A DNA stretch of 64,000 nucleotides from Pyrodictiaceae archaeon (GCA_027036135.1 JALVSY010000016.1:448001-512000), one strand, 5' to 3'. Positions 3,503 through 33,743 are shown, counted from the first letter of the stretch. Numbers and translations: made by a program. The notes: generated by a model not told the origin, from the sequence alone.

Positions 3503-4823
3503 TCACCTCCTCTTATCAATAACCCTCTTGGCCTTTCCTCCCTCTCCGCGCGGAAGCTCGCCAGGCTCGACAATAATTACTCGTGGATTCACAATGATTG
3601 ACTCCCTTAGCCTCTCTTGTAGCCTCCTAGCTAGCTCTCTCTTCTCCTCATCGCTTAGCTTCTTAGCAGCCTCTACCACTACGGCGAGCTTGTCCATGGA
3701 GTCCTCTCGCTCAACTATTACCTGGTAATAGGGGGCAGCTAGTGGCTCCGATAACACAATCATCTCTATGGTCTGCGGGAACACGTTAACACCATTAATT
3801 ATCAACATGTCGTCTGCCCTTCCCTTTATCCTGGCAATCCTCTTCATGGTTCTCCCACAGTCACAGCTCCTTGCATCAAGGATGAACGTTAAGTCATTAG
3901 TCCAGTACCTTATCAGCGGCATAGCATCATGGGTTAGTGGCGTGACAACCAGGACACCTTCCTCCTCCGGCTCGAGTGGCTCCCCGGTCTTTGGGATCAA
4001 CTACCTCGACTAAGTAGTGGTCCTCCCATACATGGAGCCCGTCGTGAAAATGGCAGTCAACAGCTGTGCCCGGTCCATAGAGCTCACTCATACCATACAC
4101 ATCATAGCTATCCATGTCCCACAGCCTGTTAATCCTCCTTCTCATCTCCTCGCTCCACATCTCTGCCCCGAAGAACCCGAGCCTAACCCCGGTATCATGG
4201 GCAGGATCAACACCCATCTCCAGCGCGGTCTCCGCAAGCCTTATCGCATAATTAGGCACAGCGGCGAGAGCCGTGGCGCCTAGGTCACGTATCATCTGTA
4301 CATGGCGCCTCGTGTACCCAGGACCAGCAGGCACTATCGTAGCTCCTAGGCGCATTGCTCCATAATGGAATCCTAGGCCACCAGTAAACCAGTGATAATT
4401 GAGTGTAGAGTACAATACATCCCCGCGAGCAAGACCACCAGCGGCGAAGGTGCGGGCCATGAGCTCTGCCCAGTTCTCTAGATCTCTTCTCGTATAGGCA
4501 ACAACAGTGGGTCTACCAGTCGTGCCACTACTCGCATGAACCTCTAGTACCTCGCTAAGTGGGACAGCTAGTAAGCCAAAGGGGTACTCTCTGCGTAGAT
4601 CATCCTTGAAGGTGAAGGGGAGCCTCCTTATATCCTCTAGGCTCTTGATATCCTCGGGGCTTATCCCTGCCTCCTTCATCCTCTTCCTATAGAGCGGCAC
4701 ATACTCGTATGCGCGCTTTACGGTTAGCCTTAGCCTCTCTAGCTGTATCTTCTCTATCTCTTCGCGCGAGGCAGACTCTATACTAGGCTGTAACATGTAG
4801 GGCTTCACAAGCATAATTACCAC
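3503..4823 (-). pseudogene. paaK: Phenylacetate-CoA ligase family, split by a +1 frameshift at about 3990
   Basis: HASSGTTGRP, YGMSE, RYWTND, GRADDMLIINGVNVFP; removing one A from CCCAAAGACC restores EVVDPKTGEPL. Confidence 0.9.
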
Positions 4824-6965: not shown

Positions 6966-8378
6966 CTACGCTGGGCCCGTTTCTTTATGCTCCTCTATTA
7001 TTGGCCTTGTCCACGAGCCATATAGGAGCCATAGTAGCGCTGCTAGCCCTGTCACGTAGTTACTTATAGCCATGCCGAGCCATAGACCCTTCTCCCCCAT
7101 CCCCATCTTATATGCTAGTAGCCATGATAGGGGTACCCTCATTCCCCAGAGCCTTGTAGCGCCGAGGGCTGATACGAAGAATGTCCTACCACTGCTCCTC
7201 GCAACAGTGTTTGCCAACATGAATAACGTGAAGCCAAGGGTGCTCGGAGCAAATATGTGGAGCATATCAACAGTTATCCTCACAACGTCTGGATCATGGC
7301 TAAATATAGTTGCGAATGGTTTCGCATAGATCATTATTACTATTATGAACTCTGTGACTGCTAGGAGGAGTGTCGTGAGCCCTGTCCAGAGAGCCTTCCT
7401 CGCTCTCTCTATCATTCTTGCTCCAAGTGCCTGTGCTACGACGATGCCTGTTGCTCTCCCGAAGGGCATCGATATTATGCGGTCAAAGCCTATGACCACT
7501 TGGCCTATAGAGTATGCTGCTAGGACATCGGTGCCTAGCCCAGATACTATGCCAGCCATAGTCATGAAGCCAAGGGTTATTGCTAGTCTCTGCCCTATCT
7601 GTGGAAGCGAGACATGCATGGCTAGGCGCACATAGGTTCTCCGGGGCGCCAGGTCCGTTAGGGAGAGCTTCACGCCGTGCCTACCATGGGCAAAGCTGTG
7701 TATTGCATAGCTAGCAGAGAATATCCTAGCGAAGAGCGTTGCTAGTGCTGCCCCGAGTATCCCTAGACGTGGTAGCCCGAGGAGGCCGAATATCAGCACG
7801 GGGTCTAGGACCATGTTTATCAGCGTAGCAGCTATACCTACCTTCATCGGGGTCCTTGTGTCACCTACCGCGCTCATGGTCATTGTGAAGAATAGATATA
7901 TCGCGGCAAACGGTATACCGGTAGCAAGCACTGTTAGATAAATATACGCTAGTGGCCTAACATCGCTGGGCACGTGTATAGCCGATAAATAAGTATTAGC
8001 TGTAGCTATAATGACTAGTGCTCCTGGTATCGTTATGGCGAGCATTAATCCGAGAACAGTGCCCGCAGCCTCTCGCGCCTCCCGGTACCTCGCGGCCCCG
8101 ATGTATTGGCCCACTAGTGCAGAGACGCTGCTAGCGAGCCCAAATGATACACCGAATAATATGTCGGGATAGGGCCAGGACACTATAGGTGCTCCGAGAG
8201 CGGCTTTGCCGAGCCTAGAAAGCCAGAAGGTATCAACTATCTCATAGATAGTATTGATGCCCATGGAGAGCATGAGTGGCGCAGCGAGCCACAATATGAG
8301 CTTGAATATGTTGGGCTCGGTGAGTACCTTCTCGCGTAGACTCTTAATCCTGGCACCCATGTCGCCGCTATGCGACAA
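6966..8378 (-). CDS. MATE family efflux transporter
   Basis: About 12 TMs; IVDTFWLSRLG, GQYIGA, GDTRTPM, NMVLDPVLIFG...LGILGAALAT. Confidence 0.93.
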   Translation of the reverse strand: MSHSGDMGARIKSLREKVLTEPNIFKLILWLAAPLMLSMGINTIYEIVDTFWLSRLGKAALGAPIVSWPYPDILFGVSFGLASSVSALVGQYIGAARYREAREAAGTVLGLMLAITIPGALVIIATANTYLSAIHVPSDVRPLAYIYLTVLATGIPFAAIYLFFTMTMSAVGDTRTPMKVGIAATLINMVLDPVLIFGLLGLPRLGILGAALATLFARIFSASYAIHSFAHGRHGVKLSLTDLAPRRTYVRLAMHVSLPQIGQRLAITLGFMTMAGIVSGLGTDVLAAYSIGQVVIGFDRIISMPFGRATGIVVAQALGARMIERARKALWTGLTTLLLAVTEFIIVIMIYAKPFATIFSHDPDVVRITVDMLHIFAPSTLGFTLFMLANTVARSSGRTFFVSALGATRLWGMRVPLSWLLAYKMGMGEKGLWLGMAISNYVTGLAALLWLLYGSWTRPIIEEHKETGPA

Positions 8379-8620
8379 TTCCCTGCTCCACCACTATCAA
8401 TTATTGCTTCAACGGCTCATCGCCTAGACAGTGCAGGCCTCTACGAGGTGCTGTAGAGGATTTGGTGATGTAAGAAGCCTCCAGTCAGCATAGGGACAGA
8501 CAAGGCCTATATATGCAGAGCCAAGAACAGTACCCAGCGTAGTCCTAGACGCGCAAAATGCGCGGCAAAGACGAGGAGGACTACAAAAAGAGTTGCATTA
8601 TTTACCAGGTAGGGGGGAGG

Positions 8621-11600
8621 CTATATCCTTGGCTCTAGTACTCCCTTCTCTATTAACCGTATCAGTACCCGCCTCGCCTCATCAGCCTCGAGGCCCAGTC
8701 TCTCGGCGACAAGTTGCACTGCTTCACGGAATAGGAGCTCTCCTCTACGCCTCCTCTCCCTCACTATTTCCTGGTAGGCCTTCAGCTCCTCGGCTCCGAG
8801 TACCCTGGCTTCCTCGATCAGCCTCCGCAAAGTCTCTAGGTGGGATCTCATCGCCTTTATCGTTGCGAACACGTCACCCCTCTTCTCGGGCCGTGGCGGC
8901 TCCCGGCCTATCGCGCGCAGGGCCTCCTCGAGCGCGGCTGCCTCAGCCTCGAGGCTAGCTAGTACCCGCTTAGCCTCAGCCTCTGCCTCCCGGAGCACAC
9001 GTTGGCCGCGGTCAAGACTGTCCCGTAGTATTGTGCGAGCGCTCTCCACGAGGCTCCTGGCAGCGCGGACGGCCTCGAGCACATCACTGCTATGCATCCG
9101 TAGCGTCTCCAGCGCCTTGTTCTTCATAGCCTCTGCCTGGCCCAGTGCAGAGTCCAGGTCGCTTAGGGCCTCTCCCAGCATAGCTGCCTGGGCAAGCGCA
9201 GCCTCCTTCGCCTCCTCGTATGCACGGGCAAGTGCCTTGTACCAGCTCCTCGCAGCCACAAGGCTCTCCTCAAGCCCAGCAAGCTCCTCTAGGAGGCGCG
9301 TTACTTGCTCATCTAGTTCTACAAGTGGGCGCCTAGCCTCCTCGAGGCTCCTCCGCAGCGCCTTGACGAGCTCCTCTAGCTCCTCTACGCTTAGCTCCTC
9401 TGCGCCCTTGGCCTCGAAGCCTGGGAGCGCTAGTTTCTCGGGAGGTATCTTGACTCCTAGCTTGCCTAGTTTCTCCGAGAGTTTCTCTGCTAATCTACGC
9501 GTCTCTGCAGTATCCTCGAGTATTCTCCTCACAGACTCCAGTATGGCCTCGAGCCTTGCTAGGAGCTGCTCTATGCGGGGCTCCAGCCTAGGCCCGGTCT
9601 CAGCCAGCTGTACTATTCCCAGTTCTTCCAGCCTCTTGTAGAGAAGGTATAGCTTATAGTTGTAGTGAATCACGGGGCCGAGCCCATTAACATAGAATGG
9701 TGTATAGCGCCCGGGGTCCCGTGGATGCTTCTTCTTGGCCTCGTCCCATATCCTAGCAATGTTCTTCTCTAGCTCCTCCTCGCTGAGGTGCAGCCTCTCT
9801 ATCTCCTCGAAGACGCTTAGCGCGCCCTTGAGTCTCTCAATGACCGGTGTCCTAACCCTAACTCGTTTCCCGAGTAGGGTCTCTAGCTGCGAGCTAAGAG
9901 CCTCTACGAGCTCCCCCGCCCTCCTAGTGGTGTTCTCTATCTCTGCCCGTAGCCTCCTAGCATCCTCGGCTGCTCTAGCCACGTGGGCTGAGAGAACCTC
10001 GTCCCTCACGTAGGTAGCTGTATCGTATACTAGGCGTGCGAGCCGGAGGCTCATTAAGCGGTTCCCAGCCCTCAGCGCCTCCACCGCTGTATCGAGTAGC
10101 GCTCTCATCTTCTTCGTGAACTCCTCTAGGCTACCAGCTCGATAATCCCTAGCCTTAGCCGAGACCACTAGCCCCCATGTAGCCGCTACTGGGTTCTTCT
10201 CTATCTCCTCGATTACCTGTCTGGCCTCCTCTACTAGTCTCCAAGCATCCTCGTCGCTATCCGTCAGCCTTAGCCTCGCTCTCTCTGCGTCAACACGCCT
10301 ACTAGACCCAGAGGCCGTGACCACTAATCCCCTATAGAGGAGGCTCTGGAGAATCATCCGCCGGGTACCAGGGTTACGGGCAGCCATTACTAGGTGGTCC
10401 CATATCTGCGAGGCCTGTACCTCGCGGTTTCTTGCATCGAGTTGCTCTAGTACACGTATGACGGCTTTCTCGAAGGGGCTCAGCACGTCTATGTATACGC
10501 TCCCGTTCCTCTTCTCGAGGAACCCGTTCGCCGCCAAGAGCGTCATGTACCTCTCGAGGGTTGTGTACTCGTTGCGATCAATATCGGGGCTGAGTAGGCC
10601 TCTCCCCTCGCCGCCTTGTCCACGATAGAGGTGGTATCTCATAACGTACTCGTAGGCAGCGTTAAGGGCCTCCTGTACAGTGGCCCTAGTACTCGGGGCT
10701 ACTAGGAAGTAGCGTAGCGCTCCACTAAGCTCAGTGGGGCGCTCAACATCGTAGCCCAGTGCTGGGTCGCGGATGATTATTGGTGTATTGTCCACGCCTT
10801 CCTCGAGGCCCCTTATGAGTCTCTCCTTTATCCTTAGCTCCTCGCCTAGTTCTCTCAAGAGATTAGTTAGGCGTAGCGGGTCTAGGCCAGCTGCCTCGGC
10901 CTCTCCGGGTTCTCTCACTACTCGGTCTATGTTCCTGAGGGCCTCCTCTACTCCTCCATAGGCATCGCTCATTCTTATCCCGAGTGCCTGTAGCCTTACA
11001 CGGGTCATCATGGAGTCTATCGGGGCTCTCACTATTTTTACGAAGAATTTTGCCTCAAGGGCCTCTAGTATCCTCTCAGCCTGCGGCTCAACACCACCGT
11101 GGTAGACTAGGAGTATTGCATGGGGCCTCCAGTTAGTCATGAGGGCTGTTAGTAGCTGGCTCTCAAGCCTCTTAGCCTCAGCGCTCGTTACCTGGCCCGG
11201 TACCGTGTAGAGCATTAGCCTCGCCGTGGCGTCACCGAGGAGCCTAAGAGTTACACGGGCTACTCCATCGCCCTGTACAGCTGGCTCAGCGGCAAGCATG
11301 CCCTCGCTCGCTAGTAGCGCTGCTATGCCTAGGAGGAGGTGCTGCTTACCTGCCTCGGTGTAGACTCTGCGAATAATCCTTAGCCTCTCGACGCGATCAG
11401 CTATGAAGTCCAGGTAGTGTAGCTCAGGGCTCACGTAGAGTACTCGCTGCATCTTGGGAGAGAGGAGTAGTGTGTGCTCGCCGCGCATAGGGAGTAGTTT
11501 CGAGAACAAGCCCTCCCACAGTATACCAGCTAGTCTCTCGGCCTCGGAGCGGCTAAGCTCGATCGGCGCTGCATCCGCTACTAGTAGGACGGCATCCTCC

Positions 11601-13060
11601 TCGCTAGGAGGCGTAGCAACGACTAGGCGGCCAGCAGGGTCGAGGTAGACGAGGCTATCCAGTAGCTTCTCGAGTGGCCTAGCCTCGTCCCTTGGTGCTA
11701 GCTGGGGCATCAGCTTAGCTACCTCTGGCTCTACCCCGCGGAGGAGCTTGAACGCGTCCTCCACAGCTGGTACCAGGACGACGCTGTGGACTAGGCGCTG
11801 GACACCCAGCTCTCTACGAGGCCATGCTTGTTCACCGTACATGTTGAGTTCTCTCACAGCCTCGGCTAGGAGCTCTCTGCGGAGACTAGTAGCCTCTACT
11901 AGCTGTTGCCAAGTAGCAGCGCCCCGCGCCACTAGCTCGTCAAGTACCCTCCTAGCCCGGGACGGGTCTAGGCCAGCGAGCTTAGCCCTAGCCTCCCAGC
12001 CATCGATTAGCCTCGCATAGGCCTCAGAGTTTATCGCGGGTATCTCTGCGCCCCCGACGCTTAGCTTGAGGCTCTCAAGCGCCTCCAACAACTCCTCTGT
12101 ATCAAGTATAGCGACGGCGTCGCCACAGCCTCTCCGGCCACGGCTCCACGATACCAGGTAGCGGAAGGCAGACACTATGGCGCCCATGTTGCCGAGGCTA
12201 CTGGAGACAACCGCGTTGGCCAAGCCGTGGTCAACTAGTAGTGCGTCGAGTCCCTCTCCGAGAGAGTAGCGCGAGAGACTCTCGAGGAACGCGAATGCCT
12301 CTCTACGGCTAAGCGGTTGAACCCATATAGTCCTCACCCGTCTCTTGAGACGAGCGGCTATCGTGGCGAAGTCCCTTAGCCCCATGAGCCTACTATAAGC
12401 GGGTGGAGTAAGGCTAGCAACCACGTGGAACCTACCGCTTAGGCACTTCTCTCCCCTGCACCGAGCAGAGACAAGCTCGATGTCACCGTTGAGGAGCCCC
12501 ACTAGCCCAGCAACGATTACTCCTAGCTCCTCCTCGGAGGCCGAGGCGACTAAGTCCTCAAGCTCGTCTATGAACACTATTACGCCCCTGCCCTTGCCTG
12601 CTAGCTCCTCGAGTACGCGCTCCACGTAGTCACGTAGACTGGGAGCCGCGTCAGGTGGTCCGAAGCGTGCAAGGAGCCCGGCATTCTCGAGCCCAGCTGC
12701 GAGCAGAGCAGCCGCGAGGCGATAGGCTGGATCCTTTTCCGAGCGCTGACGAAGAGCCCCGAGGTGAGCTTGTATAGTAGCTGCCCTTGTCTCGAGTGTT
12801 AGCCAGCCACGTCGCTCAGCCCATGGCTTGACCCGGGCATTATAGATGCTTGTCTTGCCCTCACCCCACTCAGCTACTAGCATTACTAGTACGGGGTCAC
12901 TGCTCTTCTCTAGCTCGTTAAGCGCCTCAGCTACTTGCTGATAGACTCGCTGCCTGCTAGGCAGTGGCGGGATGTACTCGTCTAGCATCCCGGCATCGGT
13001 GCCAGTTAGGCTCGGTAGCCTCCGGGGTACAGCGCCGCACCCGGGACTCCTAGTAGCCAT
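8621..13060 (-). CDS. 1479-aa P-loop NTPase with long coiled coil and C-terminal winged helix
   Basis: Walker A-like AEWGEGKTS, Walker B VIVFIDELE, arginine-finger-like ARLKRR; heptad-rich C-terminal third; ends ARRVLIRLIEKGVLEP. Confidence 0.85.
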   Translation of the reverse strand: MATRSPGCGAVPRRLPSLTGTDAGMLDEYIPPLPSRQRVYQQVAEALNELEKSSDPVLVMLVAEWGEGKTSIYNARVKPWAERRGWLTLETRAATIQAHLGALRQRSEKDPAYRLAAALLAAGLENAGLLARFGPPDAAPSLRDYVERVLEELAGKGRGVIVFIDELEDLVASASEEELGVIVAGLVGLLNGDIELVSARCRGEKCLSGRFHVVASLTPPAYSRLMGLRDFATIAARLKRRVRTIWVQPLSRREAFAFLESLSRYSLGEGLDALLVDHGLANAVVSSSLGNMGAIVSAFRYLVSWSRGRRGCGDAVAILDTEELLEALESLKLSVGGAEIPAINSEAYARLIDGWEARAKLAGLDPSRARRVLDELVARGAATWQQLVEATSLRRELLAEAVRELNMYGEQAWPRRELGVQRLVHSVVLVPAVEDAFKLLRGVEPEVAKLMPQLAPRDEARPLEKLLDSLVYLDPAGRLVVATPPSEEDAVLLVADAAPIELSRSEAERLAGILWEGLFSKLLPMRGEHTLLLSPKMQRVLYVSPELHYLDFIADRVERLRIIRRVYTEAGKQHLLLGIAALLASEGMLAAEPAVQGDGVARVTLRLLGDATARLMLYTVPGQVTSAEAKRLESQLLTALMTNWRPHAILLVYHGGVEPQAERILEALEAKFFVKIVRAPIDSMMTRVRLQALGIRMSDAYGGVEEALRNIDRVVREPGEAEAAGLDPLRLTNLLRELGEELRIKERLIRGLEEGVDNTPIIIRDPALGYDVERPTELSGALRYFLVAPSTRATVQEALNAAYEYVMRYHLYRGQGGEGRGLLSPDIDRNEYTTLERYMTLLAANGFLEKRNGSVYIDVLSPFEKAVIRVLEQLDARNREVQASQIWDHLVMAARNPGTRRMILQSLLYRGLVVTASGSSRRVDAERARLRLTDSDEDAWRLVEEARQVIEEIEKNPVAATWGLVVSAKARDYRAGSLEEFTKKMRALLDTAVEALRAGNRLMSLRLARLVYDTATYVRDEVLSAHVARAAEDARRLRAEIENTTRRAGELVEALSSQLETLLGKRVRVRTPVIERLKGALSVFEEIERLHLSEEELEKNIARIWDEAKKKHPRDPGRYTPFYVNGLGPVIHYNYKLYLLYKRLEELGIVQLAETGPRLEPRIEQLLARLEAILESVRRILEDTAETRRLAEKLSEKLGKLGVKIPPEKLALPGFEAKGAEELSVEELEELVKALRRSLEEARRPLVELDEQVTRLLEELAGLEESLVAARSWYKALARAYEEAKEAALAQAAMLGEALSDLDSALGQAEAMKNKALETLRMHSSDVLEAVRAARSLVESARTILRDSLDRGQRVLREAEAEAKRVLASLEAEAAALEEALRAIGREPPRPEKRGDVFATIKAMRSHLETLRRLIEEARVLGAEELKAYQEIVRERRRRGELLFREAVQLVAERLGLEADEARRVLIRLIEKGVLEPRI

Positions 13061-14236: not shown

Positions 14237-15085
14237 TCACTCCTCTACTATCTCTCCCGCGAGAAGCTCTACCCCGAGCTTACTAGCCATCTCCTTAGCA
14301 TCCCTCGTAGCCTCTATCGCTAAGAGCATGCGCCTAGTAGCACTCTTGCCCAGTATGCGCTCAGCTACCCTTGTCTTCTCATGGAACCATAGCACGTCAT
14401 CGGGCTCAGCATACGCCTTAACCTCCAACAACCACAACTCATCGTCGTGAACATAGATGTCTATCTCGATTACAGCACCCCTAGCAATATACCTGCCATC
14501 AACATCAACGTACTGTAGCCTCTGCACACTAAGCGGCTTAATACCATGCCTCTCCAGTAAGTCTCGATAAATCTCCCTAATAAGGCCCTCCATCCTCATA
14601 CCCAGCCGGCGACTAAGAGCGCCAACACTCCTCTTGAGACCCTCAACGCTCTTCTCAAGCCTCCTCTGCCCCTCCATAAGCTCGGCAAACCTCTCCTCGA
14701 GTCTTTGTTGGCGCTCTTCTAGTCGTGCAAACCTTTCTTCTAATCGCTGCTGTCTCTCCGCGAGCTTCTTGAACTCCTCCTCTAGTTGCGCGAATCTCTC
14801 CTCTAATTGCGCAAATCGTTCCTCGAGCTTCTGTTGCCGCTCCTCGATCCTAGCGAATCGTTCCTCCAGTTTCCTGAACTCCTCTTCTAGCCTTAGCTGC
14901 CTCTCCTCAATACTTGCGAACCTCTCCTCAAGCCTTTGCTGGCACTCCTCAAGCCTACTAAACCTCTCCAAAAGCTCCCGGAAACCAAGTAGCCCCATAA
15001 CAGCGTAGCGGAACTTACGGTCAGACTCAAGAAGCCTCAATACCCGCTCCTTGAACTCGGCATCAGAGCCACTATTAATGGACAC
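14237..15085 (-). CDS. Coiled-coil repeat protein with a C-terminal PD-(D/E)xK nuclease-fold domain (DUF3782/DUF1626-like paREP type)
   Basis: Repeated LEERFA/QQRLEE heptads, then EIDIY...LLEVK. Confidence 0.85.
   Translation of the reverse strand: MSINSGSDAEFKERVLRLLESDRKFRYAVMGLLGFRELLERFSRLEECQQRLEERFASIEERQLRLEEEFRKLEERFARIEERQQKLEERFAQLEERFAQLEEEFKKLAERQQRLEERFARLEERQQRLEERFAELMEGQRRLEKSVEGLKRSVGALSRRLGMRMEGLIREIYRDLLERHGIKPLSVQRLQYVDVDGRYIARGAVIEIDIYVHDDELWLLEVKAYAEPDDVLWFHEKTRVAERILGKSATRRMLLAIEATRDAKEMASKLGVELLAGEIVEE
14650..14980 (-). repeat. Degenerate 21-bp (heptad) coding repeats
   Basis: Roughly 15 LEERFAx/LEERQQR units in the translation; boundaries approximate. Confidence 0.8.
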
Positions 15086-19802: not shown

Positions 19803-20213
19803 GTGTCTGGTGTTCTTAGTAGCCTTCTTCTCGGCTATCGGCTTAACTTAGAGAAGGCTGAGGGCTTGGAGGAGAAGGGGCTTCTTGTCCCAGCGGCTTA
19901 TCACCTATATGTTGCTCTCCAGCTTCGTGCATCTGCTCTCCTCTACCTAGTGGATCCCGGTTCTAGCCATAATTGCTCCGTGTCGGTTATCCTCCGCTTG
20001 ATTGAGAAGAGGCTCCGTGAGCGGGGCTTCGCTGGGCTCGCCGAGAGGGTTGGGAAGCTGGTTGAGGAGTATCGTGACGCTATTGTGTGGGCTGAGAAGG
20101 TGCATACACTGGCTATGTATAAGCCCGTGGAGATAGACAGGGATAAGATGAGGAGGGTCAAGGAGCTTATAGAGAGGCTCGATGAGCTGGAGAGGGTATT
20201 GACTAGGCGCTAG
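19803..20213 (+). CDS. Solo HEPN-domain protein (divergent)
   Basis: Helical pattern AAYHLYVALQLRASALL...SHNCSVSVILRL; no adjacent MNT gene. Confidence 0.6.
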   Translation: MSGVLSSLLLGYRLNLEKAEGLEEKGLLVPAAYHLYVALQLRASALLYLVDPGSSHNCSVSVILRLIEKRLRERGFAGLAERVGKLVEEYRDAIVWAEKVHTLAMYKPVEIDRDKMRRVKELIERLDELERVLTRR

Positions 20214-24891: not shown

Positions 24892-26295
24892 TTGACTATA
24901 CGCTCAGTAATAGGTGTTCTTGTAGTTGTCCTCCTGCTAGCCATGGCATCCATAGCTTATCTTGCTACCCATCATGCTCCTAGTTCTAGCGCTCCTCATG
25001 CAAGCAGGGCTGTGAGCACTAGTACGTCTAGAGCAATCACTGACACAGCTACGCAGCCAGTGGCCAGTAGGACGACTACGGTTATGCAGGGAGGCCTTGT
25101 TTCGCTTATTTATCGGCGCCTAGGCTACCCCATAATCCACTACTATGTCCCAAAGGAACTAGGACTAGGTAACGAGGAGGTAGCAGCAGTTTACGCAGTC
25201 CACGCCTATGGCTCGGAGGAGCCAATAGGCTACATCAATATAGAGGGGCTCCTAGGCCTGAGACAGGTCCTCCGAAGAGCGCTGAGCGTGCTGGGCAGCA
25301 ACTATAGCCTAGTGAGGGCAGAGTATGTACCTGGCCTCGTAGTCAATGATACTCTCGTTAAGAGGCCTCGCTGGGTCCTCGTGCTCGCAAAGACCTATAA
25401 GGGGTATAGGCTCTGGCCCCGTTGCTGCGGCGATGTAGTGGCTGAGGTAGACGCGCTCAACGGCTCAGTAAAGCTGCTCCAGAGAGGCAACTATATGGAG
25501 CCAAAGAGCTCGGTTCTGCTACCGAGCCAGGATAAGCTAGCCTCCATGAGCCCAGAGCAACTAGTGAGGAGAGCCCTTAGGCAGATACTGAGCCTCTACA
25601 AGGGCTGGGGGAGACAAGTCCTAGAGGACGCACTGGCCAATAGGACGCGCTACGACTATAGTATTGATCTGCGCATAGCCCGGCTAGGCGATGAGAGCAA
25701 CGAACTCCTCTCAGCACAAAGCACGGTAACTAAGGAGTTCCTCGGCCAGCCCCGCCTCTACTGGGTAATAACAATAGAGGCTGACCACGTTATAGCAAGC
25801 GCACTAGTAGATGCGGTAACCGGGCGGCTTGCAAGCTACATCGTGGAGCCCCTATGGCCACGGACACCATGGGCAGAGCTACTAGTAGAGCCAACCTACC
25901 CGGGCAAACCAATCAACGTAACTAGGAGTATCAAGGGCCTCGGAGAAACAACCGTCACATTGGTACACGTGCTCCCCGTGAAGACGGGCGAGAAAGGAAC
26001 CCTAGCCCTAGTAGCCTATTGGAGAACCCATGTCAACCCAGCAGCGATAAAGACAGCGCCAAAGATAATCCTAGAGCCGAAAACCATAGAGACCAAGTGG
26101 ATCAAGCTAATTCCTCTCAACAACACAGTAGTCGTAGAGCCCAGCACCGGGGCAAAGAACCAAATACTCTACAAGTACAGAGTGAGCGCCAGTGCTAGCT
26201 CAGGCATATACGTGGCGGAGATAAAGCTAAGCGAACAAGTAGTAGGCTACCAAAACATCTCGCGTTGCATCCCATTAGTTATTGACATAGGTTAA
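24892..26295 (+). CDS. Membrane-anchored/secreted protein with Ser/Thr linker and two PepSY-like motifs
   Basis: N-terminal hydrophobic helix; AEVDALNGSV and ALVDAVTGRL. Confidence 0.7.
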   Translation: MTIRSVIGVLVVVLLLAMASIAYLATHHAPSSSAPHASRAVSTSTSRAITDTATQPVASRTTTVMQGGLVSLIYRRLGYPIIHYYVPKELGLGNEEVAAVYAVHAYGSEEPIGYINIEGLLGLRQVLRRALSVLGSNYSLVRAEYVPGLVVNDTLVKRPRWVLVLAKTYKGYRLWPRCCGDVVAEVDALNGSVKLLQRGNYMEPKSSVLLPSQDKLASMSPEQLVRRALRQILSLYKGWGRQVLEDALANRTRYDYSIDLRIARLGDESNELLSAQSTVTKEFLGQPRLYWVITIEADHVIASALVDAVTGRLASYIVEPLWPRTPWAELLVEPTYPGKPINVTRSIKGLGETTVTLVHVLPVKTGEKGTLALVAYWRTHVNPAAIKTAPKIILEPKTIETKWIKLIPLNNTVVVEPSTGAKNQILYKYRVSASASSGIYVAEIKLSEQVVGYQNISRCIPLVIDIG

Positions 26296-26475
26296 TAGCG
26301 ATGCTCCAAGACCCTGTAGAATGATTAATTAAGAACGTCTATAGCATCTTTGATGCGTAAGAATTGGTTCAGAATAATGCAATTAACGGTATGAAAATAA
26401 TTAATATATGTCTCCTTTAGAGCGTATTTATACTTTGCTCTACATGGCATTTTCACTCAATTATATAAGTAGTCG

Positions 26476-28203
26476 TTGGTGCTGCTCTATATGGTCAGTA
26501 ATGTAATCAAGATGAGAGATATGATTAGATTTAAAAAGGCTATACCGCTAGTAATCCTAGCAGTTCTCGCAGCATCCTCTCTTGCACTCTTCGTAGCCAA
26601 GATGGATGGACTTAATGAACGAGTAGTAGCCAGCGAAGCTTTTGCTAATAACCTCAAAGTAATATATATCAATAAATTGTTTGGGTCACAGAGCGCTAAA
26701 ATATCGCTACAGGGAGTACCTAAGGGTTATCATATATGTGTAAGTGCATGGGGCTGGACTCCGGATAGTAGTATAGTGTCTCTCGGGAAAGCATGCTCGG
26801 CTAGCGGTACCATAGCTTTACCAGTCGATTCTATTAAGAGGTACATGAAGGCTTGGAAGAATTACTTGATAAGAAACAAAGATAGCCTTAACGTTGTTGA
26901 ACCAGGCATACTGATTACAGTGACCCTAGTAAAGCCGGGCAAAGCTATCTATGCAGTATTTAAAGCAGTCCCTATAAACGCTAAGTACTTTCTCGAAAAG
27001 AAGGCATCATTAACTATAACTATAGGATCGGATGCAATAAAAGCAGCGCTCAAGAAACCTGTTATGACCTGGAACGAGTGGGAAAAAGCACTAGCTAGGT
27101 CAATGACTGCAAGGAAGCAAGCGCATAGTACTGAATGGCCGCCGAAGCTAGTACCCATAGGTAATGGAATATATTGGACCTACTATAAGACTATAGCTAA
27201 GAATGACGATATGTATATACCATTAGTCATAGTGAGGCTGCATGGCTATTTAAAATATCTGGAAAGAACCCAGCTGCTTCTCCAGGAATTCTTTGCCTCA
27301 TACGATAAAGGCTATGTCGTCTTTACAGCAACGTATCATGTTGATCAAGATAATGCAGGCATAAGCATAGATTATGGAGATATGGGCCCAGTCTTTAGCC
27401 TTAAGGCAAAGACGAAAGCACTTATGCAGTACCTGGATTTTGAAAGCTACTTCGCGTACAGCGATGACGCCAAAACGCTTAGGAGCATTTCTGGCCTCTA
27501 TAATCACCCGCAAGTTGCTGTACTACATGTAAAGGGTAGCGATGCTATCGCAGCTATTGGTTTCAGAGGACAGAGCATTGTTGCAAAGTACTGCTTAGGC
27601 TATGAGTACCCGATAGGAGGAGGCGTTTCTATCGTTACGTGTCCGAAGAGCAATACAGCCTTTGCAACATTTACTATGTTTAGGCCCATAGTTTATAAGA
27701 ACCACCTATACTACTGGGCAGAGGCTGATAGCAACCCTCACGATGGAATCGGTGTCGCCGAGAAGGCCTTCTGGCCGATATACAATACATGGCACTACAC
27801 TGAAAAGGAATTGTATGAAAAGCCGCTTTATGTCAGTTCCTCTAATCTCACAGCAATATCCAATGCCATTCCGCTGCTCGGTGTAGGTGTGCCAGTACTA
27901 CCACTTCTCATAAAGGATCCATCACCACTTCTAGCACCAGTATTCGCAGCCACACTTGGCTACACAAGCAAATCAGTAACCGTCCTTCATCTATCAGCCT
28001 CGCTATACTCCGATAAAGGTACTAATGTGGGCTTTGTAGCCAGGATATTCGAAACACCGATGAAGCTATACTATGATGACAGAGCGTACACTATAAGCTC
28101 GCCAGTACTAGATATAGGCATATACCAAGGCGGCGGTGCGCCACACCCGTGCACGGCGCCTGGTACCTCATGCCCGACAAATAACAAGGGTACAGAAGCC
28201 TAG
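26476..28203 (+). CDS. Secreted hypothetical protein, AT-rich coding
   Basis: Signal peptide KKAIPLVILAVLAASSLALF (true start probably a downstream ATG); Tyr/Ser/Thr-rich; Cys-pair tail CTAPGTSCP. Confidence 0.75.
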   Translation: MVLLYMVSNVIKMRDMIRFKKAIPLVILAVLAASSLALFVAKMDGLNERVVASEAFANNLKVIYINKLFGSQSAKISLQGVPKGYHICVSAWGWTPDSSIVSLGKACSASGTIALPVDSIKRYMKAWKNYLIRNKDSLNVVEPGILITVTLVKPGKAIYAVFKAVPINAKYFLEKKASLTITIGSDAIKAALKKPVMTWNEWEKALARSMTARKQAHSTEWPPKLVPIGNGIYWTYYKTIAKNDDMYIPLVIVRLHGYLKYLERTQLLLQEFFASYDKGYVVFTATYHVDQDNAGISIDYGDMGPVFSLKAKTKALMQYLDFESYFAYSDDAKTLRSISGLYNHPQVAVLHVKGSDAIAAIGFRGQSIVAKYCLGYEYPIGGGVSIVTCPKSNTAFATFTMFRPIVYKNHLYYWAEADSNPHDGIGVAEKAFWPIYNTWHYTEKELYEKPLYVSSSNLTAISNAIPLLGVGVPVLPLLIKDPSPLLAPVFAATLGYTSKSVTVLHLSASLYSDKGTNVGFVARIFETPMKLYYDDRAYTISSPVLDIGIYQGGGAPHPCTAPGTSCPTNNKGTEA

Positions 28204-29969: not shown

Positions 29970-30235
29970 TGGAGCATGAATAGGATTGTTAATAACTTAA
30001 TAACCGAGTACCCTTGTGCCCCCGGCTTACTAGTAGCTACTTTGCCCGTGTTCTTTTGCCGAGCTATAAATCCCCCTTGCCACAACTACTTTCTTAGTGA
30101 AGCTTCATTCCACTCATCCTCGTCAATAGTGTTTGCAGTTCAGGATAAGGAGCATGTTTTGCCAATATATAATTAGGCCTATGACTTTCTTTAAGTTTCT
30201 GGAAGCTCCTTAGAGACTAGTGGTGCTAAGAATCT

Positions 30236-30646
30236 ATGAGCCATATAGATGAATATAAGGTTATGATTACTAGGAGTAGATGGTTCCTTGATCTAGCTAG
30301 AGAGGCGTATCGTAGGCAGCAATACGACTTAGCAGTATTTCTCGCCGAGCAAGCAGCACAGTTACGAGTAAAGGCAGCACTCATCCGCCTTGCCGGGCAC
30401 TATCCACGAGTTCATAGTATCCGGTTACTATTAGGAGAGCTAGCGAAGGCAAGCGGTAATGCGGGTAAGAAGATAATAGAGTTCATTAAGAATAATCGTT
30501 CTCTCTTATCAGAGCTAGAGGATGTTTATTTAATAGCAAGGTATGCCCCAAAACAGTACAGCCGCGAGGACGCCGATGACCTCATAACTATAGCAGAGAA
30601 AATCATCAAGCTTGTAGAGGAGACAGAGCGAGGCCAGGAGCATTGA
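30236..30646 (+). CDS. HEPN domain protein (pair 2)
   Basis: AEQAAQLRVKA, PRVHSIRLL, LEDVYLIARY. Confidence 0.9.
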   Translation: MSHIDEYKVMITRSRWFLDLAREAYRRQQYDLAVFLAEQAAQLRVKAALIRLAGHYPRVHSIRLLLGELAKASGNAGKKIIEFIKNNRSLLSELEDVYLIARYAPKQYSREDADDLITIAEKIIKLVEETERGQEH

Positions 30647-30975
30647 GCCTTGTCGTGGAGAGGGCTAGGATGCTAAGGGAATGGAGGAAATGGGTGCCGA
30701 GGGTAGTGGAGGTTATTAAGCAGCTATACCCTGATGCAGAGATCTACGTCATAGGCAGCGTGGCCGAGGGAACCTATACCGGGGCTAGCGACCTAGACCT
30801 CCTAGTAGTGACGAAGAACCCTCCAAGAACGCCCCGAGAAGAGGCGGAGGCGAAGACAAGGATAGAGGATCTAGCCAGCCTACCCATATACCACCCGCTC
30901 GAGATACACTTCGCGAGCCAAGAGGAGAAACAAAAGTGGCTCAAGTGGTCAAGGAAGACAATAAAACTAGCCTAG
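30643..30975 (+). CDS. Minimal nucleotidyltransferase (MNT, pair 2)
   Basis: VIGSVAEG...SDLDLLVV; 4-bp overlap with the HEPN gene. Confidence 0.9.
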   Translation: MSLVVERARMLREWRKWVPRVVEVIKQLYPDAEIYVIGSVAEGTYTGASDLDLLVVTKNPPRTPREEAEAKTRIEDLASLPIYHPLEIHFASQEEKQKWLKWSRKTIKLA

Positions 30976-31027
30976 CCCGCTACGAGGCAGCATCGCTAGT
31001 GATCGCTTCATAATATTTTGGTGATGT

Positions 31028-31126
31028 TGTGGGCCGCGGGGGAACCCGTCCCCCACCAGCAAGGGGCCCTTAGCGGCCCCAAGCCTGTCGGGAACGGTGC
31101 GGGGGCGACAAAGCCACCCGCGGCCC
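31028..31126. ncRNA. Candidate structured GC-rich ncRNA (H/ACA-like on the minus strand)
   Basis: 10-bp closing stem GGGCCGCGGG/CCCGCGGCCC; inner GGGGCC/GGCCCC hairpin; ACA directly after the stem on the minus strand. Confidence 0.5.
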
Positions 31127-31318
31127 CCCGAGTAAGCCCTAGGACATTGTCGCTCAATATAGTCTCTACCTTTCATAATTTTGCGGGAGTCATGTGAAAA
31201 CAATTTGTAATAGTTATTTATTGATTAAATATTAAGAAAATATAACGATATATATATATATATACCTTCAGCATTACTATACTCAATAATAGAAGGGTAT
31301 AAAGAGGTAGATTCAATA

Positions 31319-32089
31319 ATGCTTATAGGCAAGAAAACAATAGCCACAATAGTAATAGTGATGATAGGCATCACGTCACTCATAATACTTCATCCCTGGC
31401 GACACGGGCACAGCTCTAAGCACTATAAGGTCATAGCAATACCTTCTCTAGGAACACCTCAGGAGGCGTTTAGGGAAGGATATGTCTATGGCTACGTAGT
31501 GGGAAAGATTCTATCAATGAAGAATCCTACAGGAGGTCTGCTAAAGATAAAAGTTAAGATAACATATGTAGGGAACGCCTCAGCTCCCGAGGAGCTACTA
31601 GTAAAGCCAGTACTGGATAATGGCCTTGAGGTATCGCTCCCACCAGCTATGGCTAAAGAGATACTCATAAAGTATCAGAACAATGGTAAGGCGCTCCTAG
31701 ACCTATTGTTCCGCGGAGTAATATCCTTCGACCAAGACGTGGGTGGCAGAGTCTGGGTAGAACCATCAAGATTACTTAATGTTGCCTCGGAGAAACCTAT
31801 AATAGTTCATAGAAATAGCTCCGTAGTGGCAACAATACTTGTGAAACCCGCTAATTTATCACTAATAGAGCGCAAAATAGCTTGTAGCCTACTCAATGCA
31901 CGTTTATCAAGAATAGGAATTAGGGGCCCTATATCCATTGATTTCGAATTATTCAATGCAATCACGGGGAAACCTGCTGCGAGGAAGGGTATGAAACTAG
32001 TCTTATTAACATGGCCGATAAGCATTCCAGCAATACAAGTATATTATATAGCATGTATATATAACGAAGTTTATGGGGGTGGGAGGTAA
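31319..32089 (+). CDS. Membrane-anchored hypothetical protein, AT-rich coding
   Basis: KKTIATIVIVMIGITSLIIL anchor; TAATG overlap with the next gene. Confidence 0.7.
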   Translation: MLIGKKTIATIVIVMIGITSLIILHPWRHGHSSKHYKVIAIPSLGTPQEAFREGYVYGYVVGKILSMKNPTGGLLKIKVKITYVGNASAPEELLVKPVLDNGLEVSLPPAMAKEILIKYQNNGKALLDLLFRGVISFDQDVGGRVWVEPSRLLNVASEKPIIVHRNSSVVATILVKPANLSLIERKIACSLLNARLSRIGIRGPISIDFELFNAITGKPAARKGMKLVLLTWPISIPAIQVYYIACIYNEVYGGGR

Positions 32090-33072
32090 TGAAGACTGGA
32101 AATAAATATCACGCCCTCATTATTCTAATAGCTGTAATAGGATTAATCATGTTTAATACCATCTTCGTTACGATTGCTTATGCTGATAACGATCACTATT
32201 ATATAGGAGGATACTTTGTCCATAACGATGTTATAACCGCTACCAGGGCTATCATGGCTGCAAATATAATTTCTCTAAACCCATCGGATATACCACCTGG
32301 TAATACTTTTCAGATGGTGCTAAGCGTTGCTGGCGGCAATGATGGGGCTCCTAGTGGATGTGTTTACCAAAACTCTATCGAAGTACTCCATAACGGTACA
32401 GTCATTGTTGTGCCGCAAGTATGGAATGGCTCTACGCTACTCTCCTATAGGATAACTAATACTAATGTATCAACTGATGCTATTGCTTGGTATGTAGAGA
32501 TACGGGTTCCGGGTAATGGTATAGCTTCTATGTGGCTCTATACCTATGCTACGTGGATCGAGTATGAGTATAATGCTCCTGAAAAGTGTCATCAGGATTT
32601 CAGCCTTGCGGGAACAAATTGTAGGAACGATAAACTCCTTGTAGGCGTAGAGAAGCATGGTGATTACTATGTTAAGTTCCTGCAGTTCGGTATTGAGGCT
32701 AGTAGTCACGTGGGTAGCAGCAATAATGAGTGGGAGGTGCAGACTTATAGTATAGCCTATTATAGTAGGGGGGAATGGCATTATTTGCCTGCTAAATCAG
32801 TGCTTTCTTCAACATCAGCGATAACTTATACAAAATCCGGAGCCCTTATAATAGTAGGTGGCTTGGACTATAATAGTGTTAATATAGATAGAGCGTTTAC
32901 GTATAACGATGACGTGTTCTGGCACTATACTGGTGATACGTTGCCTTCGAATACGACGCTATGGAGTGGCTCCGGCAGTATGACGCCGTATCCTTATCAG
33001 CAATCATGGGTGTTTAGCCTGCCTCCTAGCCCTCTTGGTACTTTGCAGGAGCAAGGGAATAGAACAAAGTAA
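32089..33072 (+). CDS. Secreted beta-rich protein, possibly glutamic peptidase (G1/neprosin)-like
   Basis: Signal peptide ending IAYA; VYQNSI and LQFGIE as a possible Gln/Glu dyad (inference). Confidence 0.65.
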   Translation: MKTGNKYHALIILIAVIGLIMFNTIFVTIAYADNDHYYIGGYFVHNDVITATRAIMAANIISLNPSDIPPGNTFQMVLSVAGGNDGAPSGCVYQNSIEVLHNGTVIVVPQVWNGSTLLSYRITNTNVSTDAIAWYVEIRVPGNGIASMWLYTYATWIEYEYNAPEKCHQDFSLAGTNCRNDKLLVGVEKHGDYYVKFLQFGIEASSHVGSSNNEWEVQTYSIAYYSRGEWHYLPAKSVLSSTSAITYTKSGALIIVGGLDYNSVNIDRAFTYNDDVFWHYTGDTLPSNTTLWSGSGSMTPYPYQQSWVFSLPPSPLGTLQEQGNRTK

Positions 33073-33116
33073 GTGCAGAGACCCCAATTTTTATTTTTCT
33101 TGTATTGTTTTCCTTA

Positions 33117-33680
33117 TTAATATTTTAGTAGTTCTTGTAGTGCTTCTTCGTGCTCCTTGCTCCATTGTTTTCGTTGCTCTAGTTCGGGTTTTACGTGGTT
33201 CTTTATTATCTCTATGAGCTTGTCTAGTAGGATTATGATGTCCTTGGCTGCTTCTTCTCGGCTTCTGTACTTGCTTAGCTCCGCATCGGGATCGGGGCCG
33301 TGGTACTGGTAGTCGTGGAGGTCTAGGGCCTTGTCTGTTGCGAAGCTATAGCCCGGTACGTGTTTCTCTATTAGTTGTCCGAGGGCTTTGAGCCTGGTTG
33401 TTGGGATGCGTGTTATTGCTTTCTCCCTTATCCATTTTGTCTCCTTCTCGGGTAGGTTCTTTGTTATCTTGTCTATGTGGAGGGCTAGTATTGCTGCTGT
33501 TAGTGCTCTCCATGCCTGGAATGCCTTACCGGCTGCGTTCCTTGTATAGCCTTGCTCTAGGAATCTTAGGGCGAGGAGGGCCTCTAGCAGTGCTTCTAGT
33601 GCGCGTGCTGAGGCGTAGGCGGCTAGGTCTCTCCTGGGCTTTGGTAGTGGCTTCTCTAGTAGCTCTGGACTAGTAGTCAT
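33117..33680 (-). CDS. PaREP1 family protein
   Basis: GYTRNAAGKAFQAWRA, ALDLHDYQYHGPDPD. Confidence 0.88.
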   Translation of the reverse strand: MTTSPELLEKPLPKPRRDLAAYASARALEALLEALLALRFLEQGYTRNAAGKAFQAWRALTAAILALHIDKITKNLPEKETKWIREKAITRIPTTRLKALGQLIEKHVPGYSFATDKALDLHDYQYHGPDPDAELSKYRSREEAAKDIIILLDKLIEIIKNHVKPELEQRKQWSKEHEEALQELLKY

Positions 33681-33743
33681 CCCTGTTCCCGCTCTCTTAG
33701 TGCACGGGGTGCCTGGTTATACCCTTGTGCTCTACTCGCCGGG

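Follow-up and report, generated by a model that had tools for sequence, protein, structure and literature searches.

A large orphan AAA+ ATPase of archaea is encoded with HerA and NurA and is a candidate subunit of a DNA-targeting system

Introduction

What does an archaeon do with a 1479-residue ATPase that stands alone at its locus and matches no named system? The question is raised by a 64,000-nucleotide stretch of DNA from a Pyrodictiaceae archaeon (GCA_027036135.1 JALVSY010000016.1:448001-512000; hereafter the window), which encodes such a protein, here called X. An initial annotation, made from the DNA alone, described X as a single-gene, STAND/BrxC-BrxD-like nucleic-acid sensor that was either antiviral or chromosome-organising. 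We find that, across archaea, genes of the X family stand together with those for HerA and NurA, and that most complete distant loci add a TGT-family gene and a gene resembling archaeosine synthase ArcS. Judging from this genomic evidence, a partnership of X with HerA and NurA is likely, and we favour, with rather less assurance, the view that X is the large subunit of an unnamed archaeal DNA-targeting system with a HerA-type hexameric translocase and a NurA-type nuclease.

Results

The X family and its operons

A profile of X residues 1-1000, built from 19 sequences and searched against 1,835,955,588 representative proteins, returned 257 matches at an E-value (E) of 0.001 or better, 226 at 1e-10 and 169 at 1e-30; among the 150 of the 257 matches listed, nearly all proteins were 1370-1770 amino acids (aa) long and matched the whole profile. 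The family is closed and rare, and HMMER makes no link from it to other AAA+ families. A word-indexed search gave 20 homologues, most of 1417-1499 aa and with 47-97% identity, including hypothetical proteins that their sources assign to Pyrodictium abyssi (71%) and Hyperthermus butylicus (65%), and in six-frame translations of 201 genomes from the order at least 15 genomic copies ran without an internal stop. X itself translates as one open frame with no internal stops, and because of these full-length homologues and uninterrupted copies, the 1479-aa open reading frame (ORF) called in the initial annotation is a real gene. A scan of one genome per prokaryotic species located at least 38 loci, with record titles naming Pyrodictium, Hyperthermus, Pyrolobus, Ignicoccus pacificus, Desulfurococcales, Bathyarchaeia and Methanodesulfokora, and further Thermoplasmata, Hydrothermarchaeum, Archaeoglobales, Methanophagales, Aenigmatarchaeota and Anstonellales. 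Family members also include proteins from metagenome-assembled genomes (MAGs) labelled Aenigmatarchaeota and Njordarchaeia, and loci in four bacterial MAGs (Poribacteria, an actinobacterium, Chloroflexota and Bacteroidota) may be binning errors.

The four genes on each side of X were clustered for 52 non-duplicate loci (51 fetched and the window), with crude longest-ORF gene calls and with many loci lying on short MAG contigs. Recurrent neighbours were a NurA domain protein of 310-390 aa (26 of 52 loci; Pfam NurA), a HerA of 547-570 aa (21 of 52; Pfam DUF87), a TGT-family protein of 338-386 aa (13 of 52; Pfam TGT) and a DUF5591 protein of 175-280 aa (12 of 52; eight by clustering and four more by Pfam). 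At the 19 distant loci, HerA lay immediately upstream of X in all 18 with upstream DNA, NurA lay upstream of HerA in 16 of those 18, and a TGT-like gene was present in all 13 that reached at least two genes past X, the other six stopping at a contig edge. The usual order was nurA, herA, X, DUF5591 and TGT, with gene ends that abut or overlap, and the operon-encoded X was homologous to the window's X over its full length (hhalign probability 100%, E 7e-107, 1342 aligned columns).

The nearest NCBIfam model of the operon DUF5591 gene was the middle of archaeosine synthase ArcS and that of the operon TGT gene was archaeal TgtA and DpdA, in each case far below the cut-off. At ~345 aa, the operon TGT lacks the C-terminal tRNA-binding domains described for arcTGT, a size that would fit, without proving, a substrate other than tRNA. 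The NurA of the system retained D65, E130 and D148 in all 26 sequences, that of the window's genome included, and PADLOC recognised among the operon genes only a generic HerA and DpdA, with no match to X or NurA.

Intermediate states were found among closer relatives, with X followed directly by NurA (loci L052-L054), X split into genes of ~600 and ~885 aa and then followed by NurA (L041, L042, L057 and L058), or X beside a divergently transcribed herA-nurA pair (L043-L045). Variation was also seen in two loci with Chloroflexota and Bacteroidota MAG titles, L077 and L083, where a DUF6884 gene right after X (L077:12168-12659 and L083:11522-12022) stands in for DUF5591 and the TGT-like gene is placed on the upstream side of nurA. 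In addition, L067 carries an additional 255-aa gene between the TGT-like and DUF5591 genes (L067:4690-5454), with a weak, sub-cut-off Hus1/PCNA-like match (E 3e-4).

A Pfam survey of 93 ORFs flanking 13 five-gene loci identified DndB, a D12 adenine methyltransferase with DUF6996/6997, GmrSD_N, a PLD nuclease, TIR_2, a CAP12-PCTIR TIR protein, Shedu SduA_C and a Cdc6-like ATPase, together with four integrase ORFs, PIN and HepT/MNT pairs; ribosomal and metabolic genes were present too. QueC (L070) and a Vut_1 transporter (L077) also lie in these flanks, which we take to tie the five-gene module to the preQ0 pathway.

Co-occurrence of X with a HerA paralogue

Across the 201 genomes of the order, in families f1 (the window's own) to f13, we scored X and the system-type HerA paralogue, the latter counted at E 1e-60 or better. 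X and the paralogue were found in 20 and 19 of 27 genomes of f1, 6 and 7 of 26 of f4, 4 and 3 of 8 of f7, 6 and 0 of 6 of f9, and one each of 26 of f10, in the same genome; f13 gave one weak match to X and the paralogue in 18 of 26; and both were at zero in f2, f3, f5, f6, f11 and f12. For f8, the single-protein search reported X in 1 of 27 through the coiled coil only and the profile in 0 of 27, with the paralogue in 0 of 27. X and the paralogue were both present in all 17 X-bearing genomes at least 90% complete outside f9, which, as kin are not independent, is a pattern rather than a statistic; every mismatch outside f9 and f13 fell in a genome below 90% completeness, and the seven f1 genomes without X were all 60-88% complete. 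The initial annotation had proposed to read patchy presence in defence islands as support for defence and universal syntenic presence as support for a chromosome role, and the outcome is mixed: X is patchy across archaea, often in defence-type surroundings, yet present in every near-complete genome of the window's family.

X is single-copy in the window's own genome, and its identity to relatives in f1 was 98, 94 and 77% within the genus and 42-65% in other genera. When six genomes (G018, G007, G194, G014, G075 and G140) were compared with the window's, HerA was 56-62% identical and X only 24-29%; X thus diverges much faster than its HerA, as is expected of a specificity or sensor subunit. One f1 genus has a second, shorter paralogue of 921-950 aa beside a 1500-aa X (L037, G014:C1, ORF 7499-10294; L084, ORF 7947-10709), which matches the AAA+ core and two later segments and lacks the coiled coil. 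A HerA paralogue followed directly by an X-like frame was seen at G040:C241:3619-5386, where the HerA match has one TGA and one TAG and may be a decaying copy, and at G084:C26:4283-8655, in a genome with two X-like genes (frames of 1272 and 1379 aa).

A divergent version of the operon occurs in f13, where in all four loci examined herA (534-546 aa) is followed by genes for a 985-1020-aa ATPase, a 229-268-aa protein and then NurA (351-364 aa); the one locus checked for it has a DUF5591 gene immediately upstream. These HerA paralogues are 34-40% identical to that of the window's genome, and the profile built from the system NurA recovers the NurA proteins at E 2e-35 to 8e-28. The f13 ATPase was missed by hmmsearch with the X family profiles; by hhalign it is related to X over 186 columns of the N-terminal peptide and AAA+ core (probability 95.9%, E 5e-9). 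A derivation of the small f13 protein (~235 aa) from the tail of X is unsupported, as hhalign against the C-terminal part of X gave a probability of 1.4%.

The partners in the window's own genome

In the window's own genome (G000), four matches are NurA-like and twelve DUF87-like, among them a system-type herA-nurA pair on another contig (Table 1). This HerA shares 62% identity with the X-adjacent HerA of L043, 42-44% with the HerA of five-gene loci and 26% with the genome's strongest DUF87 match (C7:359552-360652), which is presumably the repair HerA. The pair is flanked by ordinary genes and no TGT, and a tblastn search with the operon TGT gave matches of 22-31% identity elsewhere in the genome. 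A complex prediction of one fragment, X residues 1000-1479, with the genome's own NurA scored 0.00 against a mark of 0.32 and is evidence neither way. Two further NurA-like genes were noted, one of 450 aa lying 5 kb downstream of the system pair (G000:C7:572981-574330) and one beside another DUF87 ATPase on the window's contig (G000:C16:139747-141832).

In the window, the neighbours of X are a MatE transporter, an amino-acid-kinase-family gene, a DUF3782/PDDEXK_10 protein and tRNA-Leu; the MatE and amino-acid-kinase-family genes accord with the initial annotation, which had seen no adjacent partner. Its single-gene claim holds only for this local isolation, and is at odds with the nurA-herA-X-DUF5591-TGT operons of relatives, the herA-nurA pair on another contig of the same genome and the co-occurrence.

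Architecture of X

The initial annotation had quoted motifs for an N-terminal P-loop domain and a middle segment, and all were located: AEWGEGKTS (residues 63-71), VIVFIDELE (160-168), ARLKRR (236-241), RLMLYTVPGQVTSAEAKRL (614-632) and HAILLVYHGGV (647-657). The Walker A GxxxxGK[ST] and Walker B hhhhDE patterns are satisfied in one N-terminal alpha/beta domain, where G66, G68, T70, D165, E166, E168, R237, R240 and R241 are invariant in 31 sequences; T218 in the same AAA+ core lies where strand 211-217 ends. Because the NTPase-site columns are invariant, there is no sign of the non-functional site that the annotation had named as evidence against its own proposal, and the conserved arginines suggest an inter-subunit arginine finger.

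Structure was predicted as two overlapping AlphaFold2 models, each from a 31-row alignment. The model of residues 1-600 had a mean predicted local distance difference test score (pLDDT) of 88.6 and a predicted template modelling score (pTM) of 0.85, and that of residues 591-1479 had values of 88.6 and 0.68. Residue ~590, near the junction of the models, is also the end point of the N-terminal gene in the split relatives.

The middle alpha/beta domain, residues 594-700, resembled the Rpb5 N-terminal domain and STAS/SpoIIAA folds only weakly (Foldseek and a wide structure search). The annotation had seen a possible restriction-endonuclease-like fold there without a D-(D/E)xK triad, and indeed no such triad is conserved. 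An active PD-(D/E)xK nuclease is unsupported because H647 is the only nearly invariant residue (19-31 sequences), and the domain is probably non-catalytic. A coiled coil of ~430 residues, with long helices at ~1000-1383, is broken by a conserved insertion and ends in a winged helix at 1422-1479, much as had been annotated. The insertion, with P1121, F1122, Y1123, N1134 and K1136 (window 9653-9700), is a small globular P-F-Y...N-x-K unit that might be an apex, a hinge or a partner-binding site.

At the other end of the protein, the peptide C-G-x-x-P-x-R-L-P-S-L-T-G-x-D-A (residues 8-23, window 12992-13039) is conserved to the most distant subfamilies, f13 included, with C8, S17 and G20 nearly invariant there too, and C312 is nearly invariant as C8 is. 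The peptide is ordered in the model (pLDDT 72-90) and could cap the nucleotide site, form a disulfide or bind a metal, or act in docking. Among the longest family members, P0048, P0054 and P0059 (1732-1772 aa) have neither a NurA nor a DUF87 domain that would indicate an X-NurA fusion. As far as sequence and models can tell, X is a conserved, probably active AAA+ ATPase with DNA-binding-type modules and a coiled-coil tail.

Table 1 Features of X and of the system-type herA-nurA pair in the same genome (positions count from the first letter of the window unless a contig of G000 is given; ~ marks approximate residues)
Feature	Residues or length	Position	Strand	Basis
X gene, large ATPase	1479 codons + stop	8621..13060	minus	ATG start, ORF call and homologues
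Conserved N-terminal peptide	1-30	12971..13060	minus	conservation
AAA+ alpha/beta core	~34-250	12311..12961	minus	invariant columns, secondary structure, fold matches
Walker A	63-71	12848-12874	minus	within AAA+ core
Walker B	160-168	12557-12583	minus	within AAA+ core
Arginine cluster	R237/R240/R241	12338-12355	minus	within AAA+ core
Helical AAA+ lid	~252-306	12143..12307	minus	secondary structure and fold matches
Helical, winged-helix-like and alpha/beta modules	~321-590	11291..12100	minus	secondary structure, weak helix-turn-helix matches
Small alpha/beta domain	~594-700	10961..11281	minus	model and conservation
Helical linker and 2-3 winged-helix-like units	~701-990	10091..10960	minus	model
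Coiled-coil/long-helix region	~991-1420	8801..10090	minus	model and conservation
C-terminal winged helix	1422-1479	8624..8797	minus	
System-type HerA	562 aa	G000 C7:565021-566706		Pfam DUF87 above cut-off
System-type NurA	360 aa	G000 C7:566706-567785		Pfam NurA above cut-off

Fold without sequence family

The ATPase fold of X is nearest to archaeal Orc1/Cdc6, with the AAA+ core and helical lid superposing on Orc1/Cdc6 structures, and BrxC may also be a good structural match, which bears out the annotation of a nucleic-acid-directed P-loop ATPase. Sequence models behaved otherwise. The P-loop matches in Pfam were sub-threshold (AAA_16, 26.8 bits against a cut-off of 32.6), as were nSTAND_NTPase5 (13.2 against 34), KAP_NTPase (18.7 against 20, over residues 38-83 only) and the Orc1/Cdc6 model TIGR02928 (18.5 against 181.3). 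The Pfam scan gave no match to Cdc6_lid or Cdc6_C, and no long hydrophobic insert of the KAP type was evident on reading the translation by eye. PF10923 BrxC_BrxD, DUF499 and PADLOC BrxC were absent from X at E up to 1, and for a divergent f13 relative the score was 33 bits over 35 residues, covering Walker A only. With PF10923 absent and nSTAND below its cut-off, the STAND/BrxC-BrxD-like assignment of the initial annotation fails at the level of sequence models.

No Pfam, NCBIfam or PADLOC model reached its cut-off on X, and a PDB sequence search with X alone or with a 19-sequence profile gave nothing below E 0.2, so the annotation was right that no system could be named; a full-length match to a characterised family, which it had listed as contrary evidence, is absent from Pfam, NCBIfam, PADLOC and PDB sequences. 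Matches to EzrA, ATG17, JetC and LmuB are confined to the coiled coil and compositional. For residues 591-1479, Foldseek found no match at E 0.001 or better and the wide structure search returned mostly helical bundles. In the ESM Atlas, whole X fell only among generic ATPase clusters, one of them, a lead only, with PF10923 in 20% of members, and residues 591-1000 gave no usable match.

Comparison with known systems

X shares its fold with the archaeal Orc1/Cdc6 initiators (PDB 1w5s, 2qby and 1fnn) and is not a member of their sequence family. It is about four times longer, with a conserved Cys/Ser/Gly peptide at its N terminus, additional winged helices, an alpha/beta domain and ~430 residues of coiled coil, and its gene context is HerA-NurA rather than replication origins.

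Canonical archaeal HerA-NurA acts with Mre11-Rad50 in double-strand-break resection. The X system has in common with HerA-NurA-Rad50 the HerA hexamer, the NurA nuclease and a large ATPase with a long coiled coil, whereas X is AAA+ and not ABC, its HerA is a distinct paralogue (26% identical to the presumed repair HerA), and no Mre11-like phosphoesterase was seen in the X operon core.

A similar theme appears in the HerA/FtsK capture systems, described in PMC10853773 as having an Orc/Cdc6 ATPase, an inactive restriction-endonuclease domain and a winged helix, for which that paper proposes that the ORC (origin recognition complex)-like ATPase localises the apparatus and HerA intercepts DNA. Both they and the X system have an Orc/Cdc6-clade ATPase, a HerA/FtsK translocase, a nuclease, winged helices and possibly an inactive endonuclease-like domain. 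The nuclease is NurA in the X system and a restriction-endonuclease-fold enzyme in the capture systems (PMC10853773), and X differs further in its length of 1400-1600 aa with a long coiled coil and in having the alpha/beta domain only after ~590 residues. The words NurA and TGT each occur zero times in the main text of PMC10853773, whose supplementary tables might list the X family.

Compared with BrxC/PglY, the ORC-like, BREX-related ATPases (DUF499, DUF6079; PMC12839542), X has no BrxC sequence match, has NurA as core partner, a word that does not occur in the main text of PMC12839542, and carries a C-terminal coiled coil, which is not known as a feature of BrxC. PglZ, PglX, BrxA and BrxB were found neither among the window's neighbours nor in the recurrent neighbour clusters of the 52 loci, the extent of that search being these loci rather than whole genomes, and the conserved core of the 52 loci showed no GNAT or STAND partner.

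The modification side recalls the Dpd 7-deazaguanine restriction-modification system, DpdA-K (PMC10164549), in which DpdA marks DNA with a 7-deazaguanine derivative (PMC5699537, PMC6884629). The operon TGT-family enzyme has the size of the catalytic barrel (~345 aa) and a weak DpdA match (NCBIfam 48-53 bits against a cut-off of 200; PADLOC E 1e-13 to 1e-14), and QueC or a Vut_1 transporter lies near two X loci. On the other hand, no gene of the DpdB/DpdC type was recognised, NurA-HerA-X takes the place of the Dpd helicase set on the restriction side, the ArcS-like DUF5591 partner suggests a different final base, and the module is not beside X in the window's genome.

The combination of an ORC-like ATPase with a HerA translocase, a nuclease and, optionally, base modification is a known theme, and the X family itself is in no library searched. 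We found no description of the NurA-HerA-large ATPase-ArcS/TGT arrangement in the open-access literature searched, though the supplementary tables of PMC10853773 and PMC12839542 may list the family.

Other features of the window

Within 7 kb of X, the window encodes the coiled-coil DUF3782 and PDDEXK_10 protein (14237-15085), conserved in a same-genus genome, and a small HEPN-domain protein (19803-20213), not conserved there; no link of either gene to X was found. An AMP-binding enzyme at 3503-4823 appears to be split into overlapping minus-strand ORFs (3927-4823, AMP-binding; 3503-4000, AMP-binding_C_2), which suggests a frameshift or assembly error because both parts match one ORF in the same-genus locus L031. 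The stretches 26001-28000 and 30001-34000 have a GC content of 0.43-0.46, against ~0.51-0.57 elsewhere in the window, and may be foreign or an AT-rich island.

Discussion

From the family, fold, operon context and co-occurrence, we infer a mode of action in which X would bind double-stranded DNA through its winged helices, would assemble or switch state on it in an ATP-dependent manner, and would recruit or license HerA-NurA, which would thread and degrade the DNA. The role of X would then be analogous to that of the ORC-like ATPases of the capture systems (PMC10853773) and the BrxC-like ATPases (PMC12839542). The TGT (DpdA/TgtA-like) and ArcS-like DUF5591 pair would mark the cell's own DNA with a 7-deazaguanine derivative, as DpdA does, and X would discriminate marked from unmarked DNA; the presence of TGT and ArcS-like genes in most lineages makes it most likely that the ancestral system was restriction-modification-like. 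In the window's lineage the system appears in a reduced form: no modification genes adjoin X, herA-nurA lies apart from it, and all three genes occur in every near-complete genome. Either modification-independent defence or domestication for repair is possible in this family.

We offer, as a tentative reading, that the five genes form an archaeal immune system in which a 7-deazaguanine mark, possibly archaeosine-like, is read by X and unmarked DNA is shredded by HerA-NurA, and that the window's family has lost the marking and fixed the trio as core genes. Whether the window's own copy of X has an anti-invader role is, in our judgement, evenly balanced.

Several observations weigh against placing X in a DNA-targeting system with HerA-NurA. 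X is present in 12 of 12 near-complete f1 genomes (11 of 11 sampled at 90% completeness or more, and the window's own) with identity tracking kinship, a universal presence that resembles a core gene rather than a typical defence gene. X lacks an adjacent partner gene in the window and also in L031-L035, the five closest of the complete or near-complete genomes examined, where the flanks are ordinary, and synteny reaches only the one same-genus genome compared (L031) and not other genera. No TGT or DUF5591 gene stands beside X or beside herA-nurA in the window's genome, so the restriction-modification logic cannot apply there as such. In f9, X is found in 6 of 6 genomes and the close HerA paralogue in 0 of 6, the best long matches being 27-28% identical (three complete genomes), which means that X can persist without that HerA. 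Moreover, no known defence model matches X or its NurA, and both the base inserted by the TGT-like enzyme and DNA as its substrate are putative.

X, HerA and NurA of the window's family could instead be a domesticated housekeeping set for DNA repair or chromosome maintenance at very high temperature, with X as a Rad50-like end or bridge sensor that loads resection and has no antiviral role. Absences of X from f1 are confined to genomes below 90% completeness, it is single-copy in the window's genome and its identity tracks kinship, X and herA-nurA both have housekeeping flanks with no modification genes present, and a long coiled coil with DNA-binding ends resembles Rad50. We nevertheless regard an exclusively housekeeping role as unlikely, as the wider family is rare and patchy (257 clusters in 1.84 billion; at least 38 loci), a base-modification module is part of its operons, which lie among defence and mobile genes, the divergence of X far outpaces that of HerA, and the window's genome has other HerA and NurA genes that could serve repair.

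X might also act on its own, as an autonomous STAND/BrxC-like sensor to which the HerA-NurA association is irrelevant in the window's lineage. The isolation of the gene fits this; X has, however, no recognisable effector domain, its middle domain conserving only H647, HerA accompanies it in every near-complete X-bearing genome outside f9, its relatives are operonic and the STAND, KAP and BrxC sequence models stay below their cut-offs, which together make the proposal improbable.

Less probable again is a DNA-transfer machinery, in which X and HerA-NurA would handle DNA that is exported or imported between cells, as HerA-like and NurA-like proteins reportedly do in Thermus transjugation. A HerA-like ATPase and NurA-like proteins have been linked to DNA donation in PMC5365140, integrases lie near some loci, and the system HerA weakly resembles the CedD model; its 57-72 bits are, however, far below the cut-off of 600, the conserved core showed no genes for membrane, pilus or secretion functions, and the base-modification module fits self-marking better. 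An SMC-like organiser condensing or bridging chromosomes by its coiled coil, with weak JetC and LmuB matches within residues 1022-1369 only, is scarcely credible, and an SMC/Rad50-type assignment is rejected on motif order and fold: as the initial annotation had recognised, both Walker motifs lie N-terminally (within residues 63-168, in an AAA+ ORC/Cdc6 fold and not an ABC one), and the protein ends in a winged helix instead of a C-terminal ABC half.

X has no sequence relatives in Pfam, NCBIfam, PADLOC or the PDB, yet it is conserved throughout its length, from hyperthermophilic Thermoproteota to records with the titles Bathyarchaeia, Thermoplasmata, Archaeoglobales, Aenigmatarchaeota and Njordarchaeia. 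Its placement in NurA-HerA operons gives this orphan giant protein a concrete, testable function, and does the same for the second HerA-NurA pairs of many archaea, which had no explanation. Should the TGT and ArcS-like pair prove to mark DNA, the operons would represent a cellular archaeal 7-deazaguanine DNA-modification system, of which we found no description in the open-access literature searched, coupled to a new restriction engine. The mobile five-gene operons and the fixed, dispersed three-gene set offer a natural experiment on defence becoming core, and if the five-gene reading with its fixed trio is true, the window's family would hold a defence machine domesticated for genome maintenance.

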